Part shown: piece by piece, positions 18,744-51,237 of the stretch
Position numbering within the stretch: the first letter of the stretch is position 1
Layout: each line of letters starts with the position of its first letter
Assembly: GCA_024614105.1 (NCBI GenBank)
Contig: GCA_024614105.1_4894.1
DNA: 52,935 nucleotides
Strand: one strand, 5' to 3'
DNA from: a phage
Notes under the pieces: generated by a model
The model's input: only the letters and a program-made list of their open reading frames with translations
The model's database searches: none
Told to the model about the DNA's origin: nothing
Made by a program: the position numbers and the translations under genes

Positions 18744-19644
18744 GGTCAGCAACGGTAAAGATGAAGGCATAATCATCTCAAATCTTCGTGTTACCTTTGA
18801 CATTCAAAAGGGTAACACGAAGCATCCAAATAAAGCGACAATCACAGTGTTTAACTTGACTGAATCCAACCGTTATAAGTTGGCGTCAGGTACCTGGGAT
18901 TACGTCCGTCTCTCTGTGGGCTACGGTCTTGACAACATAGTTTATCGTTTGATATTCGAAGGCGATATTACTCGCGCTAACGACCAACGAAACGGTCTTG
19001 ACATACAGACTGTCCTCGAATGTGGCGATGCCCGTAAGTCTTACAACGATGGCTTTGTTAATACGACACTAGCTGCTGGTTCTACCTACGACAGTGTTGT
19101 TGATGTTTGCCTGGCCAGTATGCCAAAAGTTGAAGAAGGGTACGTCTGCCTTGACAGCAATAAACCAGCTTTCCTGAGAGCACGTACTCTGTTCGGACAA
19201 ACGCACAGCATACTCGACCAGGTTGCTGCTGCCAACAAGGCTACCTGGTCTATACAAGACAATAAACTCAACATCATTCCTAACGACTCTGTTACTGACT
19301 ACGACGTTGTTGTGCTGTCAGAATCGTCTGGTATGATTGGTGCTCCTCGCGGCACAGACAAAGGTCTTGAGGTTACTTGCAACCTGAATCCTACTCTGGC
19401 CATCGGTGGTCTTGTACAAGTAAATTCTATGTTTACACAGTACAACGGACAGTATAAAATCGACACTATAAGATTTCGGGGTGACAATAAACCGAAAGGA
19501 CCGTGGCGTGCTGACTTGACGGTTCTCGGTGGACAATTTGCGAAGAAAGTTCGTCGACTCAAGAAGCCACGCAAACTGTCGAAGATTGAGTACGACTATG
19601 TTACTGAACCCGGTGTTGACCATACAGTAGGCGGAGGTAGCTGA
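18685..19644 (+). CDS. baseplate hub-like protein
   Basis: ORF track start is 18664; GTG at 18685 has RBS GGAGGA 7 nt upstream and reduces overlap with upstream gene; start uncertain. Confidence 0.45.
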   Translation: MSTSSTKQPTRQFGRALKLEVSNGKDEGIIISNLRVTFDIQKGNTKHPNKATITVFNLTESNRYKLASGTWDYVRLSVGYGLDNIVYRLIFEGDITRANDQRNGLDIQTVLECGDARKSYNDGFVNTTLAAGSTYDSVVDVCLASMPKVEEGYVCLDSNKPAFLRARTLFGQTHSILDQVAAANKATWSIQDNKLNIIPNDSVTDYDVVVLSESSGMIGAPRGTDKGLEVTCNLNPTLAIGGLVQVNSMFTQYNGQYKIDTIRFRGDNKPKGPWRADLTVLGGQFAKKVRRLKKPRKLSKIEYDYVTEPGVDHTVGGGS

Positions 19645-29047: not shown

Positions 29048-30042
29048 CAGTCCCCTCTCACATACGCAATTACAACTGTACGAGTTGAGTTTTCCATTTT
29101 GAGCGCCTGACTACCAAGTCCTATTCTTTCCATGCCTTTAGCCAGTTTACTCATCTGACTAATAACACAGTTGAATGGTTTACTAAACTTAGTCGACTGG
29201 AACTTAATGTCGACGGACATCTTTGGAATAATCTTATCTGGTAAGTCTGCCTTTGCAGTTGACTCACCTGTTATCTCCAGAATGGCTTGACCTTCGTCGT
29301 ACCCAGTAAGCTGGTCCATGACTTCCAGGAACTCAGGAGTGATGGCCTGCATATCCATTTCCATATTGAAGAACTTCGATACGTCTGGCCATTTGGCTGC
29401 AAGTACCGGGGCATCCATCTGTACACCATCCGCAAAGCCGAAGAACATCTGGCCGCGGGCGTATCCTACACTTGTGGGTTCCATCTTCAGCTTAACCAGA
29501 GCCTCAAGCATTGGTTTGGCTATGGCACATTCAAATTCAAAATCTACGTTCAACTTCTCGCGTATCATATACTTACCGTTAGTAGCGTAAGCATAACCAT
29601 CGCGCAGAAGTAAAGATGTAGCCCATACCTGCGGTGCTTCGTTAGGTACCCACTTGGCTAAGGCAGTTAATACCGGGAGTAATTCGCCATGCGCTGAATA
29701 CCAGTTGTTAACTGTAGCAAGCGGCGGTATTGGTTCATTAAGCGCTTGCATTCTTGTTTTAAGTACACCTGCTGTGACTGTGAGGTTTCCAGCGGCTGTA
29801 ATGTTAAAAGTAATCTGTTCAGTTCTTGCCGCATTAACGGCCTTACGAAATGATTCAGCATCCACTTGCAGGTCTGGGAATCCTTTACATGGCGCTCGTA
29901 GTAATACGTTCTTGTAGTATGAATGGATTGTTCCGTCTGCAATCCATATTTTGCCCATAAGACCACTATCAGTATACTTGATGGGACGAGCTTGTTGAAC
30001 GGCAGTCTGTATTTGTTTGGTGTCATAGTTAAACTTGCTCAT
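29047..30042 (-). CDS. hypothetical protein, translationally coupled to DNA polymerase
   Basis: 331 aa; start directly preceded by a GC hairpin with UUCG loop and no clear SD; no motif recognised. Confidence 0.5.
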   Translation of the reverse strand: MSKFNYDTKQIQTAVQQARPIKYTDSGLMGKIWIADGTIHSYYKNVLLRAPCKGFPDLQVDAESFRKAVNAARTEQITFNITAAGNLTVTAGVLKTRMQALNEPIPPLATVNNWYSAHGELLPVLTALAKWVPNEAPQVWATSLLLRDGYAYATNGKYMIREKLNVDFEFECAIAKPMLEALVKLKMEPTSVGYARGQMFFGFADGVQMDAPVLAAKWPDVSKFFNMEMDMQAITPEFLEVMDQLTGYDEGQAILEITGESTAKADLPDKIIPKMSVDIKFQSTKFSKPFNCVISQMSKLAKGMERIGLGSQALKMENSTRTVVIAYVRGD

Positions 30043-45478: not shown

Positions 45479-45521
45479 GTATGTTAATATGATTAAACAC
45501 AAATATTTGGAGGTTGTATAA

Positions 45522-45722
45522 TTGGACAATGAAAACGTTAAGAAAGCAATACTGTTATTGGCTGATGAAGTAGATTTATTGAGGGCTTATGCTCAAGCCA
45601 ATGGTGAGGGTAGAGCGCGATTGATTGGCCGGTTGAGAACTACCTGGAAACGTCAGGCTGAGAACGGTGTGTCTTTTGAAAAATTAATTGCACTTCTTAT
45701 GGAGATAACAGATAATGGTTAA
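45522..45722 (+). CDS. hypothetical small protein
   Basis: 66 aa; TTG start with RBS GGAGG 9 nt upstream; downstream of promoter 45450-45478. Confidence 0.35.
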   Translation: MDNENVKKAILLLADEVDLLRAYAQANGEGRARLIGRLRTTWKRQAENGVSFEKLIALLMEITDNG

Positions 45723-46146
45723 TATTCGGCAGAAAGGACAGAACTTTGAGCGCAAAATGGCTAAGAAGTTCAATAGCTCGTTCGGATTAACTGTTGAGCG
45801 CAATCTTCAACAGTCTATTAATGGCGGGGACGACTTGCTTGGTGTGCCGTTTTTCAGCGTTGAACTGAAGAAGCACAATACCAAGTCTATCGGAACATGG
45901 TGGAGACAGTGTGCGGCATCGGCAAAGGCGCAGAATAAGATGCCGGTACTGATATACGAACTACCAAGAAAACAGCCTGTCGTGGTGATGAATAAGGCTG
46001 ATGTGATTGACTGTTTTCCAAGTGGCACGACTTTTAACGAGGCATCGACCCGACTCTTTGTGGGTCTAGTAGAATTAACATGGGAACAATTTTGCCGGGT
46101 CTACAACTATTACGTTGCGCCCGGCACTCAATATCACGTCAATTAA
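45715..46146 (+). CDS. PD-(D/E)xK nuclease, Holliday-junction-resolvase-like
   Basis: 143 aa; GQNFERKMAKKF ... GGDDLLGV ... SVELKKH resembles the G..FER / D / E.K arrangement of Hjc-type resolvases. Confidence 0.45.
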   Translation: MVNIRQKGQNFERKMAKKFNSSFGLTVERNLQQSINGGDDLLGVPFFSVELKKHNTKSIGTWWRQCAASAKAQNKMPVLIYELPRKQPVVVMNKADVIDCFPSGTTFNEASTRLFVGLVELTWEQFCRVYNYYVAPGTQYHVN

Positions 46147-46328
46147 TCTTGTTTCAGCTCGTCGCAAATGACACGCTGATTTTTGGCAGGGATAATACCA
46201 AGATTTAGCAGGGTGTATGGACTATCAGCGACACATTGTTCAACGGTAGTCCATTCAGGTTTGGATTCAACAATTTTGTAACTACAATCATGAGTAGCCA
46301 CACATGTTGCCAGGATTAAGCCAATCAC
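46143..46328 (-). CDS. hypothetical small protein with N-terminal hydrophobic segment
   Basis: 61 aa, GTG start overlapping upstream stop (GTGA), RBS GAAGGTGA; N-terminus IGLILATCVA. Confidence 0.35.
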   Translation of the reverse strand: MIGLILATCVATHDCSYKIVESKPEWTTVEQCVADSPYTLLNLGIIPAKNQRVICDELKQD

Positions 46329-46504
46329 AAGTAATCACCTTCAACCAGAAATTCAAACAGCTGGTTGTAAACGTTGCAACCTTTAGCGAAAGAGCTTTCA
46401 GCAGGTTTACCGTCGCGGACAATCATCATATACTCACCGCCATGGATGTCCACCCAGTATTGCATGCCACCTTTGACCGGGTTACGTTGTAAGAATTTAA
46501 ACAT
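46325..46504 (-). CDS. hypothetical small protein (not in ORF track)
   Basis: 59-aa ORF found by hand (MFKFLQRNPVKGGMQYWVDIHGG...), RBS GGAG, TAATG coupling with upstream gene. Confidence 0.3.
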   Translation of the reverse strand: MFKFLQRNPVKGGMQYWVDIHGGEYMMIVRDGKPAESSFAKGCNVYNQLFEFLVEGDYL

Positions 46505-46749
46505 TATTTGCTCCTTATTCCAAGTTTATTCAATAGCCACACTGTCATGTCAACCCAGGTTAACGGTACAGTTTTCGGGGGTTGATAATTCCAGCAGCTT
46601 GCAGTTCTTTGTATTTCTGCTTGGCGCCGCTCCGCTTCGCGTAGTACCGCATCGTCAGAAGTGCTGGCAGAAAAAAGATCGGTAACACCAGATAAATCGC
46701 GTTGATTAACACGTCGAGCAATGTCATATAAGTCATCCTTAGAAAACAT
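46504..46749 (-). CDS. hypothetical protein
   Basis: 81 aa. Confidence 0.4.
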   Translation of the reverse strand: MFSKDDLYDIARRVNQRDLSGVTDLFSASTSDDAVLREAERRQAEIQRTASCWNYQPPKTVPLTWVDMTVWLLNKLGIRSK

Positions 46750-46864
46750 AAGCCAATACCATAAGAATTACCAGAAAGATCCCAACCAGCTTCCTCATCG
46801 CCCGACCTTCAGCATATGCAGGATTCACAACAGAATACTCAACAACATGTTTACAGCGGACCAT
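46739..46864 (-). CDS. hypothetical small membrane peptide (not in ORF track)
   Basis: 41-aa ORF with strong RBS GGAGG 5 nt upstream and hydrophobic C-terminus (LVGIFLVILMVLAYVF). Confidence 0.3.
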   Translation of the reverse strand: MVRCKHVVEYSVVNPAYAEGRAMRKLVGIFLVILMVLAYVF

Positions 46865-46888
46865 AAGGCCTCCACTTGTGGGTTAATT

Positions 46889-46935
46889 CAATCATGAGGA
46901 CTTTCATCAAATCCTCATTGTTGAACCAATTACCA
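46889..46935. repeat. intergenic hairpin element, copy 1 (family with conserved flanks)
   Basis: caatc-ATGAGGACT-ttcatca-AATCCTCAT-tgttgaaccaattac. Confidence 0.5.
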
Positions 46936-46955
46936 GCGTCAGGACTTTGTTGATA

Positions 46956-47156
46956 TTACTCTATCATTACCTGAACTACTATTATACACTCTTTATTGAA
47001 GCGAGTAAACACTTTTCCACCATTAGTGCGTTTAGCCCCAGATTTTAGAGCTGACTGGCACCAGATATGCCACTCCTCAACTGTCAAGAATTTTTGTTCA
47101 GCTTTGGGTGGCAATCCATGGGCAAGGTCTACCGTAGTAAATTTGACTAATGGCAT
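46956..47156 (-). CDS. hypothetical small protein
   Basis: 66 aa from ATG 47156; TGATG coupling. Confidence 0.35.
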   Translation of the reverse strand: MPLVKFTTVDLAHGLPPKAEQKFLTVEEWHIWCQSALKSGAKRTNGGKVFTRFNKECIIVVQVMIE

Positions 47157-47545
47157 CACTTGACCTCAAATTTTGACTCGTCATATTCCGGATCAGTCAC
47201 GTCCCGGGTCGCACAATTTTTGATTGCCTCCCAGTAACGTTGGGCATCATCGCCATCGACATAAACTGTCCAGTGGCCGTAACCACCTTCAAATCTGTCC
47301 CAGGCTTGTTCCCAGACTTTGCCATCTTCCAGCTTGTACCAAGTTGGACGACTGTCAAACTCGCGGATTGGATGGTACCCCATCAAGGGATTCATCAGGT
47401 CAATAATGTCTTCCCGACTAATCTCCTGGTTCTCCCACAACACCGTCATGAATTGCTCAAACTTGAAGGCGTTTGGCAGAACTTTGATGACTTCACCATC
47501 ACGATATACGGTATAGGTGCCATCTTCGCATTTTGCACTGTACAT
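47156..47545 (-). CDS. hypothetical protein
   Basis: Start moved to ATG 47545 (MYSAKCEDG) with strong RBS AGGAGAGAG; upstream hairpin element in leader. Confidence 0.45.
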   Translation of the reverse strand: MYSAKCEDGTYTVYRDGEVIKVLPNAFKFEQFMTVLWENQEISREDIIDLMNPLMGYHPIREFDSRPTWYKLEDGKVWEQAWDRFEGGYGHWTVYVDGDDAQRYWEAIKNCATRDVTDPEYDESKFEVK

Positions 47546-47570
47546 GTTTCTCTCTCCTATTGATATAATT

Positions 47571-47615
47571 TCAATCATGAACTATCACAACTTTGGATAG
47601 TTCATTGTTGAAACT
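47571..47615. repeat. intergenic hairpin element, copy 3
   Basis: caatc-ATGAACTATC-acaactttg-GATAGTTCAT-tgttgaaactatac; perfect 10-bp stem. Confidence 0.5.
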
Positions 47616-47787
47616 ATACTAACTTTGTTACAATCTGAATTGTCAGCCGGAAATCTTCCATCAAGTTATCAAACTCTTTGGAACCACCAACAGCGTCAGA
47701 AATTTGGTCTTTGACTATCTGGGCATTTGATTCCAGTAATTCAATCAGGTGCGCCAATTCGTCTTCAGTCAATTTCAGATCTTTCAT
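47614..47787 (-). CDS. small acidic helical protein, member of a three-paralog family
   Basis: 57 aa (MKDLKLTEDELAHLIELLES...); ATGA coupling; paralogous to 48047-48205 and 48909-49082. Confidence 0.4.
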   Translation of the reverse strand: MKDLKLTEDELAHLIELLESNAQIVKDQISDAVGGSKEFDNLMEDFRLTIQIVTKLV

Positions 47788-48041
47788 AATGCATCCACCC
47801 AAGCCATAACTTTTGCCAGTTTTACAACGTCGTCATGGTCCCGCTCGCCATCAGAAAATTCGCTGGCGATGATACCCATAATTGACGCCAGATTCATATT
47901 GATGATGTAGGCGTGTTGGCGCACTTCATCAATTCCTGAATCTATCACCAGCTCCGCAAATTCTTGTGAACCTTCATCCCATTCAGCCCAATACTGTTCA
48001 GCATAAAAGTCCAGTTCTTTTTTCATCTCAATGTCAGTCAT
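47784..48041 (-). CDS. hypothetical small acidic protein
   Basis: 85 aa. Confidence 0.4.
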   Translation of the reverse strand: MTDIEMKKELDFYAEQYWAEWDEGSQEFAELVIDSGIDEVRQHAYIINMNLASIMGIIASEFSDGERDHDDVVKLAKVMAWVDAL

Positions 48042-48046
48042 TTTGA

Positions 48047-48205
48047 TTACTCCTCAGAACCTGAAAATTTGTCATCAATGGACTCAACAATATAATCAAG
48101 AGTTGAAGTGTGAGAACTATCAGAAAAAGTGCCCATCTTCTCCAGCTCAATCATCATATCCCGTAAAGCCATTGCCTGGTCTTTGGTCAGTTTAATTTTA
48201 AGCAT
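48047..48205 (-). CDS. small acidic helical protein, member of a three-paralog family
   Basis: 52 aa from ATG 48205 (MLKIKLTKDQAMALRDMM...) with RBS AGGAGAGAG; hairpin element upstream. Confidence 0.4.
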   Translation of the reverse strand: MLKIKLTKDQAMALRDMMIELEKMGTFSDSSHTSTLDYIVESIDDKFSGSEE

Positions 48206-48230
48206 GTCTCTCTCCTGTTGATTGTGAATA

Positions 48231-48270
48231 ATTTCAATTGATGGCACTACTTGAGTGCCATCTCAAAAAT
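48231..48270. repeat. intergenic hairpin element, copy 4
   Basis: caatt-GATGGCACT-acttg-AGTGCCATC-tcaaaaattac; perfect 9-bp stem. Confidence 0.5.
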
Positions 48271-48812
48271 TACTCTTCAGTTTCTTGGGTTTCAGGTTTT
48301 TGACCAGTCACAGACTTGCCCTCAGTCACTTTACCAGATTTTACATCATTCCGGTAGTATGACATATATGACTGGATAACTCTTTTGGCTTTGATGTCAT
48401 CCGCTTCCATCCCACAGGCTTTCATGGCATCAACTAGGGCCAGTTTGGAATCTTCCTTGTCCATCAGGTTATAGTCCTTAAATACCAGATAACAAGTATC
48501 TTTGGTTGATGGACCAGATGACTTCCGGGCCCCGCCATTGGAAGATTTTGATGCCACAACTTTGACCTCTTCCACTTCCAGTTGGTTCAGTTCATCAAAC
48601 AATGCCTTGACCAACACTTCTTTTGAGTCCTTGACACTTACAGTACTTTCATCATTAAGGGACTTAATCATCTTAATGATCTGGTTATTGGCAAAGTACT
48701 GAAGACTATCCATCTGCACTACAATAGTCCCAAGACTTTCAGTAGTCAGACCAGATTTTACAGACTCAACAGAAAAGGCGGAAGTCAGGTAAACATAGTT
48801 GATAGTTGTCAT
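48270..48812 (-). CDS. hypothetical protein
   Basis: About 180 aa from ATG 48812 (MTTINYVYL), RBS-like AGGA upstream; largest gene of the small-gene block. Confidence 0.45.
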   Translation of the reverse strand: MTTINYVYLTSAFSVESVKSGLTTESLGTIVVQMDSLQYFANNQIIKMIKSLNDESTVSVKDSKEVLVKALFDELNQLEVEEVKVVASKSSNGGARKSSGPSTKDTCYLVFKDYNLMDKEDSKLALVDAMKACGMEADDIKAKRVIQSYMSYYRNDVKSGKVTEGKSVTGQKPETQETEE

Positions 48813-48868
48813 TTGATGTATCCTCATTGATAGAATTTTTGATAGGTGTCAATCCTTGACAAGTAAAT

Positions 48869-48912
48869 CCAATCATGAGGACTTTTACCAAGTCCCCATT
48901 GTTGGAAATTAC
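48869..48912. repeat. intergenic hairpin element, copy 2
   Basis: caatc-ATGAGGACT-tttacca-AGTCCCCAT-tgttggaaattac; near-identical to copy 1. Confidence 0.5.
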
Positions 48913-49082
48913 TTCAACTTAACCAGAATTGATTGGAGTAACTTGACCCTCACTTCCTGGTCTTTGACATCCCTTCCACTCTCCCTGTCATATTCCAACA
49001 GGTCACTTTCCATAAATAAAGTAGTGTCCAATTGGTCAACCAATAATTCCAGTTCTTCTTGGGACAATTCTAAAACTTTCAT
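48909..49082 (-). CDS. small acidic helical protein, member of a three-paralog family
   Basis: 57 aa from ATG 49082 (MKVLELSQEELELLVDQL...) with RBS AGGAG. Confidence 0.4.
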   Translation of the reverse strand: MKVLELSQEELELLVDQLDTTLFMESDLLEYDRESGRDVKDQEVRVKLLQSILVKLK

Positions 49083-49086
49083 CTTA

Positions 49087-49233
49087 TTACTCCTGATATT
49101 TAACAACTTGGGATTGGATAAAGTCAACACAATCTTCCACATCCATTGATTCAAAGTCTGGAACTGGACCATTGTTTATATTGACACACCAAAGCCCTTC
49201 ATTGGTATCATACCAAAGTGTGTAGTTGTCCAT
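49087..49233 (-). CDS. hypothetical small protein
   Basis: 48 aa from ATG 49233 (MDNYTLWYD) with RBS AGAGGTGA; first gene of the small-gene block. Confidence 0.3.
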   Translation of the reverse strand: MDNYTLWYDTNEGLWCVNINNGPVPDFESMDVEDCVDFIQSQVVKYQE

Positions 49234-49260
49234 CTTAATAGTCACCTCTTGTACTAGTTT

Positions 49261-49306
49261 CCAGTTGTGACTACTGTTACCAATAGTCACTGGTTGAAAC
49301 TATTAC
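49261..49306. repeat. intergenic hairpin element, copy 5 (imperfect)
   Basis: CCAGTTGTGACT...AGTCACTGG followed by conserved flank ttgaaactattac. Confidence 0.35.
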
Positions 49307-49623
49307 TAGTGTTACTATCAACAAGAAACATGTTACCAGATTGTTAAAGAGCAAAAGGTACCATTAACATCTACCAGATGTACCTGTTGACTGGTTAAGT
49401 ACTACCTACCCAAATTAAACCATACCAATACCCTCCAGACCAGTTGACTGGTCACTCAGTCATCACATTCAATAAATATATAATAGTCCAATCCCTCTTG
49501 ATTGTACACCTTATATTTGTAAGTTTATGCAAGTTTTTAGAAATGATAATCACTTGCGATTGAGAGTGGTTCTCATATGCAATTGATATAGTTTCACATG
49601 TAATTACTCAACTCAAAATGGTC

Positions 49624-49680
49624 GGCAGGGGTTATAATCACATAGGGGTGCCACTTAAAGGAGCCGGCGAAATTATTTCT
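49624..49680. repeat. direct repeat unit A (about 50 bp) in noncoding control region
   Basis: GGCAGGGGTTATAATCACATAGGGGTGCCACTTAAAGGAGCCGGCGAAATT; shares GGGGTGCYAC and GGAGCCRGCRAAATT blocks with unit B. Confidence 0.5.
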
Positions 49681-49800
49681 AAAAATATAATTTCAATCTG
49701 AATTATAGACGCTTTGTACTATACCGGCCGAAGTAGTTCACACGGTAATTGTACCAATCATAATAGTTACCAGGGTAATCATTTCAATTGAAATAGGTGC

Positions 49801-49860
49801 GGCGGGGGGTAATTTCGCAGGGGTGCTACCTGCCAGGAGCCAGCAAAATTTTTTTATTTT
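49801..49860. repeat. direct repeat unit B (about 50 bp) in noncoding control region
   Basis: GGCGGGGGGTAATTTCGCAGGGGTGCTACCTGCCAGGAGCCAGCAAAATTTTTTTATTTT; a third partial AAAATTTTTTTATATTTTTC tract at 49947-49975. Confidence 0.5.
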
Positions 49861-50084
49861 TTCTCTATTTTCTCCTTATCAGGACCAATCATCATCAGAT
49901 TGATACAACAGGAGCTAACCTTTTGCCTAACACAATAATAAGTGAAGCCCCTCTAAAATTTTTTTATATTTTTCGGAAATTGTGTAGACACTCACTAAAA
50001 AGTGGTGTACTTTCTCTCCTCCACGCGCTATCATTAATGCGAATAATCAAACGGCCTCACGGTCTCCTACTTGTGGGTAACATT

Positions 50085-50570
50085 ATGAAAATTGTTCAAT
50101 TAGAGCCATATCCGCCTCAATTGGCTATCGTTTGTAGCGAAAAAGAGCACGAAGAGCTCCAAAAACTGATGGATTTGCCTGATTTTGGCAACTGGAATGA
50201 CCGCGAAACGCGTACTGCATCTACCTTTACGTTCTCTCGCGTTAACTATCCGTACCTGTTAATCGTCGTCGAGCTGTACCACCCGGACGACCTGAAGTAC
50301 AACACCATTTCCCACGAAGGCATTCACGTAATGTCATCGCTGATGAACTATGTTGGCCTTAAATACGACCCAGAAAACGATGAATGGTACGCATATCAGC
50401 ATGATTTCATCGTAAATGCCATTTGTAAGGCCCATGACGAGTATACAGAGCGCCAAAAAGCGCCAAAAACTAAGCAAAAAATCGAAACAGGCAATCATCC
50501 TGTGATACAGCCACAAGACGTTATGAACTCGCTTTTGACTGACACTACTGGGGACTTTTTAGGTGATTAA
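50085..50570 (+). CDS. hypothetical protein with HExxH motif (possible small zinc metalloprotein)
   Basis: 161 aa from ATG 50085 (MKIVQLEPY); HEGIH followed by Glu about 20 residues later; upstream part of the longer ORF lacks RBS. Confidence 0.45.
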   Translation: MKIVQLEPYPPQLAIVCSEKEHEELQKLMDLPDFGNWNDRETRTASTFTFSRVNYPYLLIVVELYHPDDLKYNTISHEGIHVMSSLMNYVGLKYDPENDEWYAYQHDFIVNAICKAHDEYTERQKAPKTKQKIETGNHPVIQPQDVMNSLLTDTTGDFLGD

Positions 50571-51237
50571 TATAATCTTCGCAATGGGCCAAAATGGGGA
50601 ATTCGGGTTATCTCCGGAGTTTATGAAGCATCAGGTTGACTCATGCAAGACCATGGAAGAGGTTCGGGCGCTTCCTAAATCTGGTCTGCCCTGGAAATGT
50701 CCGTCAGATATGCTCTTTTTCAGGACTATGACTAATTCAATTGCGACAGAACCAGGCTATAATGCATATCAGCAACTACGTGGACAGTTCCCACAAGACC
50801 AGTTGCGAAACATGATAGCAGATGTAACGGTAAAAATGGTCGGGCATAGTGTATTGTTAGCCGGTCGTAATACGTATATGACTATGAGTCTGCCTATGTC
50901 AGCCCACAGAATACTGCTGCCGGTATCTCGCCAGATTATGGCTTCAGAAGGCTACAATAATCTGGGTGAGATGGCAGCAGACCTCGAATCCAGGGGTACT
51001 GACGTCTGGATTGTAGGCGGTGCCGAGTTGATACTTTCGGCCCTTGAAGAACACGCAAAAGACTTACTCCGTATCGACAACATGTTTATCAGTACGATCA
51101 AGCAATCAGGTCCAAGTGATATTTTAATGGATTGTAGAAAATTAATGATGTACATTGATAGCGACTTCACTTATAATGATGAATATGTTGATAACAAACA
51201 AGTTCTGATACAACGATACAGGAGTTTACACAAATGA
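50563..51237 (+). CDS. dihydrofolate reductase
   Basis: 224 aa; GTG start; N-terminal INIIFAMGQNGEFG, LPW..P.D..FF..T, VLLAGRNTY and VWIVGGAELI blocks match the DHFR layout. Confidence 0.7.
   Translation: MINIIFAMGQNGEFGLSPEFMKHQVDSCKTMEEVRALPKSGLPWKCPSDMLFFRTMTNSIATEPGYNAYQQLRGQFPQDQLRNMIADVTVKMVGHSVLLAGRNTYMTMSLPMSAHRILLPVSRQIMASEGYNNLGEMAADLESRGTDVWIVGGAELILSALEEHAKDLLRIDNMFISTIKQSGPSDILMDCRKLMMYIDSDFTYNDEYVDNKQVLIQRYRSLHK

Follow-up and report, generated by a model that had tools for sequence, protein, structure and literature searches.

Three small genes of a leftward block

The phage contig GCA_024614105.1_4894.1 (assembly GCA_024614105.1), whose full stretch of 52,935 nucleotides we call the window, carries three small minus-strand open reading frames (ORFs), named A, B and C here. 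An original prediction, made from the letters of the DNA, had taken them for a triplicated family of small acidic helical proteins with a common N-terminal pattern, in an early-like gene block and with a likely role in host takeover or anti-defence. They are already known as hypothetical genes in more than 50 deposited genomes. What we add is a link between A and C through a variant of C that we call C2, the exclusion of B from their family, the rejection of a database label that names C an AbbA antirepressor, the probable placement of the block in a terminal repeat, and evidence that its genes are exchanged between relatives with ORF precision. The genes, and the hairpins that follow two of them, are the following:

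47564-47618, minus strand: two-tier hairpin after A, overlapping the A stop codon; -25.1 kcal/mol, z -7.3; kept when C2 replaces A
47614-47787, minus strand: gene A, 57 aa (MKDLKLTEDELAHL...TKLV), isoelectric point (pI) 4.42; predicted helical hairpin, helices at residues 8-32 and 37-56; phrog_29626
48047-48205, minus strand: gene B, 52 aa (MLKIKLTKDQAMALRDMM...), pI 4.59; phrog_35350
48868-48906, minus strand: hairpin after C, of the same family as the A hairpin, 3 nt past the C stop codon; -21 kcal/mol, z -5.6
48909-49082, minus strand: gene C (C1 type), 57 aa (MKVLELSQEELELL...VKLK), pI 4.43; predicted helical hairpin, helices at residues 8-34 and 40-56

A, B and C are real genes. Their lengths (52-57 aa), sequences and coordinates were correct as first given, and all three are conserved and annotated in Rosemountvirus relatives, where phage birk, for example, lists them as the coding sequences gp14, gp12 and gp10, respectively. 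By tblastn, A matched 54 phage records, B 45 and C 16, while the second C type, C2, matched 8. A keeps 68% identity from Rosemountvirus to Loughboroughvirus, and in the alignment of its orthologs helix 1 is invariant and the loop variable. In fact, over residues 9-25 of this helix the window and phage AEV23 differ only by synonymous changes, so A is selected as a protein and not as DNA. Both C and A are moderately acidic, with about 21-25% Asp plus Glu and a pI of 4.4. As had been described, the three genes are interspersed with hairpins and with other tiny acidic ORFs, namely D85 and E48 (listed below); the start codon of A overlaps the stop codon of D85 (ATGA).

A and C as relatives, B as a separate family

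The N-terminal pattern that A, B and C were said to have in common does exceed chance, judging from shuffle and genome-internal rank tests. Against shuffled proteins, with residues 2-18 anchored, p was <5e-5 for A-C, 2e-4 for A-B and 8e-3 for B-C. The window genome supplies a fairer null than shuffling each protein: its own N-termini, taken from some 76 gene products, form 2775 pairs, among which A-C would rank 1st, A-B 2nd and B-C 8th. The motif [LIVM]x[LIVM][ST]xx[EQD][LIVMA]xx[LIVM], found at position 4 in A, B and C, occurs once in 13,825 residues of long ORFs, a rarity that overstates its significance because we wrote the motif post hoc, after seeing the three sequences. The most similar control pair (score 28) consisted of the N-termini MSKFNYDTKQIQTAVQQA and MSAIDYNTATLDEAIEAA, from the genes that start at 30042 on the minus strand (331 aa) and at 19644 on the plus strand (215 aa); judging from this likeness, these two genes may be paralogs.

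Profile comparisons separate the three pairs. With close orthologs only, hhalign gave a probability of 39% for A-C, 0.6% for A-B and 0.1% for B-C, and C1, which lacks the MKDLKLT identity, already aligned to A over residues 1-28 (P 3e-4). The decisive intermediate came from reading the locus of phage BP63, whose C slot holds the 59-aa variant C2 (MKDLKLTKKEVELLVEFLD...RVELLTKILNKLK). C2 is 54% identical to C, its first seven residues are those of A, and BLASTP aligns it to A over the full length (E=2e-5, 32% identity). Once C2 joins the C profile, the A-C probability rises to 85-88%, with P about 3-6e-6; taking all our A-C comparisons with C2 together, it spans 82-88%. As a control, we built profiles of 15 small-gene families from the same block and compared all 105 pairs: A-C was an outlier at P=1.1e-5, over 1000-fold better than the next-best pair (0.027). 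A joint A/C hidden Markov model (HMM) recovered every A, C1 and C2 ORF in 12 loci, and no further paralog in the window.

The two proteins also appear to be built alike. Their lengths are 57 (A), 57 (C) and 59 aa (C2), and both genes end in K-L-x-stop, followed 3-4 nt later by a two-tier hairpin of the same family. AlphaFold2 (AF2) models both as helix-loop-helix with the first helix starting at residue 8; the model of C is an antiparallel two-helix hairpin with a predicted local distance difference test score (pLDDT) of 95. For A and C, then, the description as helical holds at the level of predicted models. The conserved positions (L4, L6, [ST]7, E10, L11, L14, I/V15, L18, I/L29 and the C-terminal K-L) are mostly hydrophobic or lie at the N-terminus of helix 1, and most other positions differ.

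In some relatives, one gene stands in the place of the other. In PP583539 (positions 1242-1421 of locus L009) a C2 ORF lies exactly where A would be, with the upstream flank and the hairpin of A kept, and with C1 in the C slot. In PV893055 (positions 2372-2760 of locus L011) an E48-C2 module replaces the 5' two-thirds of A and leaves the 3' end of A as a remnant; a simple deletion is ruled out by this insertion into A. PP583539.1 is a typical Rosemountvirus genome that was deposited as 'Listeria phage 220426122051' with Listeria monocytogenes as host, an assignment that looks doubtful for an enterobacterial phage genus.

Thus, paralogy of A and C is supported by the intermediate C2 and its BLASTP match to A, by the profile outlier, by matching lengths, predicted helices, C-termini and hairpins, and by slot replacement, and we regard their homology as highly probable. 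By these comparisons A and C form a diversified paralog pair, in which C comes in the subtypes C1 and C2 and the content of the C slot varies between genomes. The triplicated family of the original prediction is in this sense reduced to two members, since A and C are demonstrably related, through C2, and B is not.

Several observations pull the other way. Direct pairwise BLASTP of the window proteins gave no significant match for any of the three pairs, A-C included. The AF2 model of A reaches only moderate confidence (pLDDT 74), and when either model was run against BFVD with Foldseek, the query's own family came up but that of the other was not among the best 50 matches. The A-C profile signal lies mainly in the first ~18 residues, and without the first seven residues hhalign falls to 2.8% (P 0.016), leaving a weak match in register at residues 39-49. 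Moreover, the records that place C2 in the A slot are weak ones, PP583539 being labelled a Listeria phage and PV893055 UNVERIFIED. The short reach of the profile signal and the lack of cross-retrieval in fold searches would both fit a different explanation, in which A and C are not homologous at all and their 5' likeness arose either by convergence (on a Lys codon behind the start, a helix N-cap and an amphipathic helix) or because recombination at the microhomology ATGAAAGAT repeatedly transplanted a common 5' segment onto unrelated genes. Consistent with this, C2 and A are identical in 20/21 nucleotides at the 5' end and then diverge, and rearrangement junctions map to ATGAAAGA(T). Yet equal lengths and matching predicted helix boundaries speak against non-homology, as do the in-register match that survives trimming, the K-L C-terminus with the same hairpin at the same spacing, the alignment of C1 to A, and the occupation of the same slot by either gene. 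We judge non-homology to be improbable.

Searches further afield returned few relatives of the pair. Among 5.8 billion proteins we found close orthologs only, and C2 was missed by the word-indexed method; an exhaustive HMM search of 1.84 billion representative proteins with the A profile turned up, besides a spurious repeat protein, two clusters of the A family, P0031 and the more distant P0044. P0044, the only diverged A homolog among these representatives, comes from L007, a 4227-bp contig of Logan SRR30347328. This metagenomic contig belongs to a more distant relative; on it, genes like E48, B and A follow one another directly, and the B-like gene overlaps the A-like one.

We place B outside the A/C family because every profile test fails to link it. 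For A-B and B-C, hhalign gave probabilities of 0.3-1.5% (P 0.03-0.18), and in the control of 105 pairs the values of 0.033 for A-B and 0.05 for B-C fall within the noise, although both pairs align in register at the N-terminus. Adding diverged B homologs from L007 and from phage KE26 left both similarities unsupported, and the joint A/C HMM found no B ORF at E<10 among 2149 ORFs. In PHROGs, A and B match different families (phrog_29626 at 4.6e-42 and phrog_35350 at 1.3e-39), and C has no match better than E=0.11. B is shorter than A and C, contains a long loop rich in S/T, and lacks the hairpin behind its stop codon; its common ground with them is a short N-terminal hxhxLTxxQ motif. B thus appears to be an independent small acidic protein that shares with A and C only an N-terminal strand and cap motif.

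Could B instead be a third copy that has drifted out of reach? In a true triplication, A, B and C would descend from one ancestral small gene, B having diverged beyond profile detection while keeping its N-terminal strand and cap motif. The high ranks of A-B and B-C among the N-terminus pairs would fit such a history, as would the placing of the extended motif, at precisely position 4 in A, B and C alike, the weak alignments in register over residues 1-13 (A-B) and 1-17 (B-C), and the adjacent, overlapping B and A genes of the distant L007, an arrangement expected of a tandem duplicate. However, the hhalign probabilities stay at 0.3-1.5% when diverged B homologs are included, the control pairs commonly show P values of 0.03-0.05, the joint HMM misses B, the PHROG families differ, and neither the length of B, nor its loop, nor the absent hairpin matches the other two. 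We therefore hold triplication to be unlikely.

Read by eye, the B sequence might fit the ribbon-helix-helix regulators, whose strand, helix, turn and helix take up about 45-55 aa: it would run as LKIKLT, a helix, a G-x-S-rich turn and a second helix. The B profile gave no match in Pfam, NCBIfam or PDB sequences. For A and C, a ribbon-helix-helix is rejected on the models, whose helix 1, at 25-27 residues, is too long for helix A of that fold.

A terminal-repeat region and its exchanges

The genes and features that surround A, B and C are these:

45715-49841, no strand: direct terminal repeat, approximate and placed by homology; right edge set by the end of the vB_SalM_Sz record, left edge approximate, at the start of a RusA-like gene
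46887-46925 and 49248-49309: further hairpins of the two-tier family, between small genes
47565-47575, 48228-48238, 49687-49697 and 49778-49788, minus strand: copies of ATTGAAATTAT with at most one mismatch
47784-48041, minus strand: D85, an 85-aa acidic ORF (pI 4.08) that lies between B and A and is coupled in translation to the latter
48240-48262, minus strand: hairpin upstream of B, of a different type (9 bp), then ATTGAAATTAT
48270-48812, minus strand: 180-aa gene between C and B, phrog_9997; the fHy-Eco03 record annotates the ortholog, gp07, as virion-associated
49087-49233, minus strand: E48, a 48-aa acidic ORF (pI 4.05), first gene of the block, immediately upstream of C and swapped together with C in some relatives
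49480-49508, minus strand: sigma70-like promoter (TGTACA, 17 nt, TATTAT), oriented towards the small-gene block

Many Rosemountvirus myophages of Salmonella and E. coli, SPLA12, brunost, JEP7 and birk among them, match region 46000-50000 at 94-97% identity, and Loughboroughvirus phages and fHy-Eco03 are more distant kin. The leftward, operon-like block of this region begins with E48 (49233), extends to about 46143 and comprises roughly 13 small genes with short or overlapping junctions. GC content is 38-43% in 44-50 kb versus about 46-48% elsewhere. A cluster of small low-GC genes to which no function was assigned has been described in phage S144 (PMC7432712), and it appears to correspond to this block.

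Two related genomes show where the block lies. In fHy-Eco03, PhageTerm found a direct terminal repeat of 3699 bp that spans g01-g11 and includes g10, the A ortholog (PMC8145870), and in the 57,020-bp record of vB_SalM_Sz each end bears the complete block, A, B and C included, the repeat ending at about window position 49841. On these grounds the block belongs to terminal-repeat DNA: by homology it would sit inside a direct terminal repeat of ~3.7-4 kb and be present in two copies per packaged genome. The 52,935-bp window holds this stretch once, and the packaged genome is therefore probably about 4 kb longer.

The promoter that faces the block is conserved, as TGTACA-17-TATTAT, in five genomes including fHy-Eco03; over the whole region, promoter-like matches are not enriched relative to shuffles. 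The leader behind it, roughly 240 nt down to 49234, shows good conservation between genera, and its last element is a -25 kcal/mol hairpin directly ahead of E48. Since the block lies inside the terminal repeat and behind a conserved sigma70-type promoter, it is most likely transcribed early, by unmodified host RNA polymerase, and A, B and C would plausibly be early genes. Such a position is typical of early or host-takeover modules. In virulent phages, the terminal-redundancy module of SPO1 and the pre-early region of T5 are host-takeover or pre-early modules placed in terminal repeats. Like them, the present block seems to combine many very small, mostly acidic ORFs in a multi-kb terminal repeat with host-type promoters and a content that varies between relatives; by contrast, A, B and C have no sequence or fold kinship to SPO1 or T5 proteins. 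Literature searches found no transcriptomic work on Rosemountvirus or Loughboroughvirus.

The two-tier hairpins between the small genes form one family, TTCAACAATG-stem-loop-stem-CATGATTGAA, in which a 2x2 internal loop separates the lower stem from the upper one, with folding energies of -20 to -25 kcal/mol and z of -5 to -7. We rejected them as intrinsic terminators because they have no U-tract; judging from their form, they could plausibly be RNase III-type processing sites or sites that stabilise the mRNA. An Rfam scan of 45500-50600 gave no match, and we found no promoter attached to the hairpins. In T4-type phages, promoter early stem-loop (PeSL) cassettes mark gene-shuffling joints, and in T7, RNase III hairpins sit between early genes; we take these as leads only. 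As in those phages, stable hairpins here separate small genes in a plastic region, and several junctions fall at a hairpin 5' arm or at start codons. Unlike PeSL cassettes, the hairpins have no attached promoter that we could find, and none has an Rfam match.

The short element ATTGAAATTAT has four matches, all on the minus strand and within a 2.2-kb stretch, a number reached in only 3/100 shuffles, and two of its copies directly follow hairpins. As a sigma70 -35 box for the downstream genes it fails, since a properly spaced -10 is missing and the ATG is only about 30 nt away.

Within the block, genes are exchanged among relatives. In zoltan and ciri, E48 and C together are swapped for a 100-aa gene (window 48915/49233). 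The C slot holds C1, C2, the 100-aa gene or nothing of the C family. These rearrangements are ORF-precise, and their junctions coincide with the hairpin 5' arm and with the start-codon sequence ATGAAAGA(T) that the genes share. Genes are also lost: KE26 lacks A, and both AEV23 (Loughboroughvirus) and fHy-Eco03 lack B and C. Because each gene is missing from some viable relatives, an accessory role fits all three, and A, B and C are probably dispensable one by one. The gene upstream of A, to which A is coupled, is D85, an E48-like gene or B depending on the lineage, so A has no fixed partner. A bolder view would make the terminal-repeat block an arena of cassette shuffling, in which small effector genes move ORF-precisely between slots and between phages by way of ATGAAAGA(T) and the hairpin 5' arms, and in which the variants of one A/C scaffold (A, C1 and C2), with a conserved core and diversified surfaces, are aimed at different targets in host defence or takeover. 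This wider picture is speculative, and we would not expect it to hold in full. The reality of the genes, the relatedness of A and C, their predicted fold, their genomic position and their natural replacement and loss are directly supported.

What A and C may do

We propose that A and C are diverged paralogous cassettes, each encoding an acidic protein of ~57 aa in which a short extended segment at the N-terminus, MKxLxL[TS], leads into a long helix, and a loop connects this helix to a second one. A and C/C2 would then represent one helical-hairpin scaffold in which the hydrophobic core and the N-cap are conserved and the binding surfaces differ, and the slot downstream of D85 could be filled by either A or C2. 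The most likely action of such proteins would be to bind a host or defence protein stoichiometrically and to inhibit or modulate it. Taken as a whole (one A/C scaffold, an unrelated B, accessory genes expressed early, proteins that bind host or defence targets), this is the explanation we favour, and we consider it somewhat probable, with the doubt falling mostly on function and not on anatomy. Early timing, a protein-binding function and the kind of target are what we infer.

Database and fold searches yielded no function. Pfam, PHROGs and NCBIfam scans found only self-families, to which no function is assigned there; the A, B and C profiles had no meaningful match among PDB sequences; and across Pfam, PHROGs, NCBIfam, the PDB and the fold searches none of the three has a homolog of known function, which counts against the proposed function. 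With Foldseek, all that the PDB and BFVD offered were helical hairpins of a generic kind, namely the seryl-tRNA synthetase arm, SSV1 D-63 and CsoR/FrmR. The best PDB shape matches of the C model, the seryl-tRNA synthetase arm and SSV1 D-63, all have E>1. D-63 (1skv), a ROP-like hairpin, does align with the C model, with a template modelling (TM) score of 0.8 and a root-mean-square deviation of 0.9 A over 50 residues; at E>1 and with no sequence similarity to C, it is a generic match of shape.

One name attached to the family deserves attention. UniRef calls the C ortholog of birk, birk_10, 'Antirepressor AbbA', and from this name one could take C, and by extension A, for an AbbA-like antirepressor that mimics DNA. 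C is, like AbbA (PF14156), small, acidic and helical. By contrast, it has no detectable sequence or fold match to AbbA: no PF14156 match appeared at E<=10 in seven family members, the PDB sequence search gave only one unrelated chain (E=2.9), and no AbbA entry stood among the best 50 of 74 Foldseek PDB matches. The net charge is also modest (pI 4.4, about 21-25% Asp plus Glu), and typical DNA mimics are more extreme in charge than C or A. The label, which neither Pfam nor the PDB sequence and fold searches reproduced, is rejected, and an AbbA-like function seems to us highly improbable.

The only experimental information comes from the A ortholog of fHy-Eco03. In a toxicity screen of that phage, g10 was among the genes screened as not virion-associated, and by its next-generation sequencing (NGS) ratio, 1.50, it was non-toxic, whereas its plating fraction, 0.46 +/- 0.19, was borderline (PMC8145870). 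Because this ortholog is not among the virion-associated proteins, a structural role is unlikely for A, and A, B and C are probably non-structural, as judged from the A ortholog. Since expression of the ortholog was not clearly toxic to E. coli, host interference is not directly indicated, a further point against our proposal and one in which the tested protein departs from the comparison with SPO1 and T5 modules. A literature search found no anti-defence work on Rosemountvirus or Loughboroughvirus. The host-takeover or anti-defence reading of the original prediction is borne out as to the setting, small acidic genes in a repeat block behind a promoter, and is not helped by the toxicity result; such a function is reasonable but unproven.

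The same screen found a single clearly toxic protein, Gp05 (g05), which is encoded in the same block of fHy-Eco03 (PMC8145870). In the window its place is taken by two overlapping frames:

46504-46749, minus strand: 81-aa ORF, the Gp05 ortholog
46560-46727, minus strand: 55-aa ORF with a transmembrane-like helix, wholly inside the 81-aa ORF in another frame

Both frames are open in 11/11 related loci, with identities of 59-99% (81-aa frame) and 69-100% (55-aa frame), and the choice of which to annotate differs between records. Judging from these frames, 46504-46749 is a possible dual-coding region, and the toxicity of Gp05 could come from the embedded membrane peptide.

A toxic neighbour raises the thought that the small proteins act on the phage's own products, as adaptors, as chaperones, as neutralisers of neighbours (the toxic Gp05-like region included) or as regulators of phage transcription. 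That A is always translationally coupled to an upstream gene would suit such a role, and so would an A ortholog that is not clearly toxic; the invariant helix 1 of A in orthologs from genera with different hosts fits a phage partner as well as a host one. But the upstream partner changes (D85, an E48-like gene or B), leaving no fixed gene pair, KE26 lacks A and keeps its Gp05-like gene, and the proteins are acidic and show no DNA-binding signature. We are inclined to doubt a phage-internal role, and return to binding of a host or defence protein as the preferred reading.

As it stands, the result is a modest gain in annotation: two ORFan families become one, a third is set apart, the unsupported AbbA name is flagged, and the block finds its place within the terminal repeat. 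If our proposal is true, A, C1 and C2 would constitute natural variants of a single 57-aa scaffold, a compact set that is easy to synthesise and could be tested for anti-defence and host-takeover activity, and the natural replacements of A by C2 suggest which swaps are tolerated. Rosemountvirus and Loughboroughvirus phages are under development for the biocontrol of Salmonella and E. coli, and it is in these phages that such a set of variants could be put to the test.

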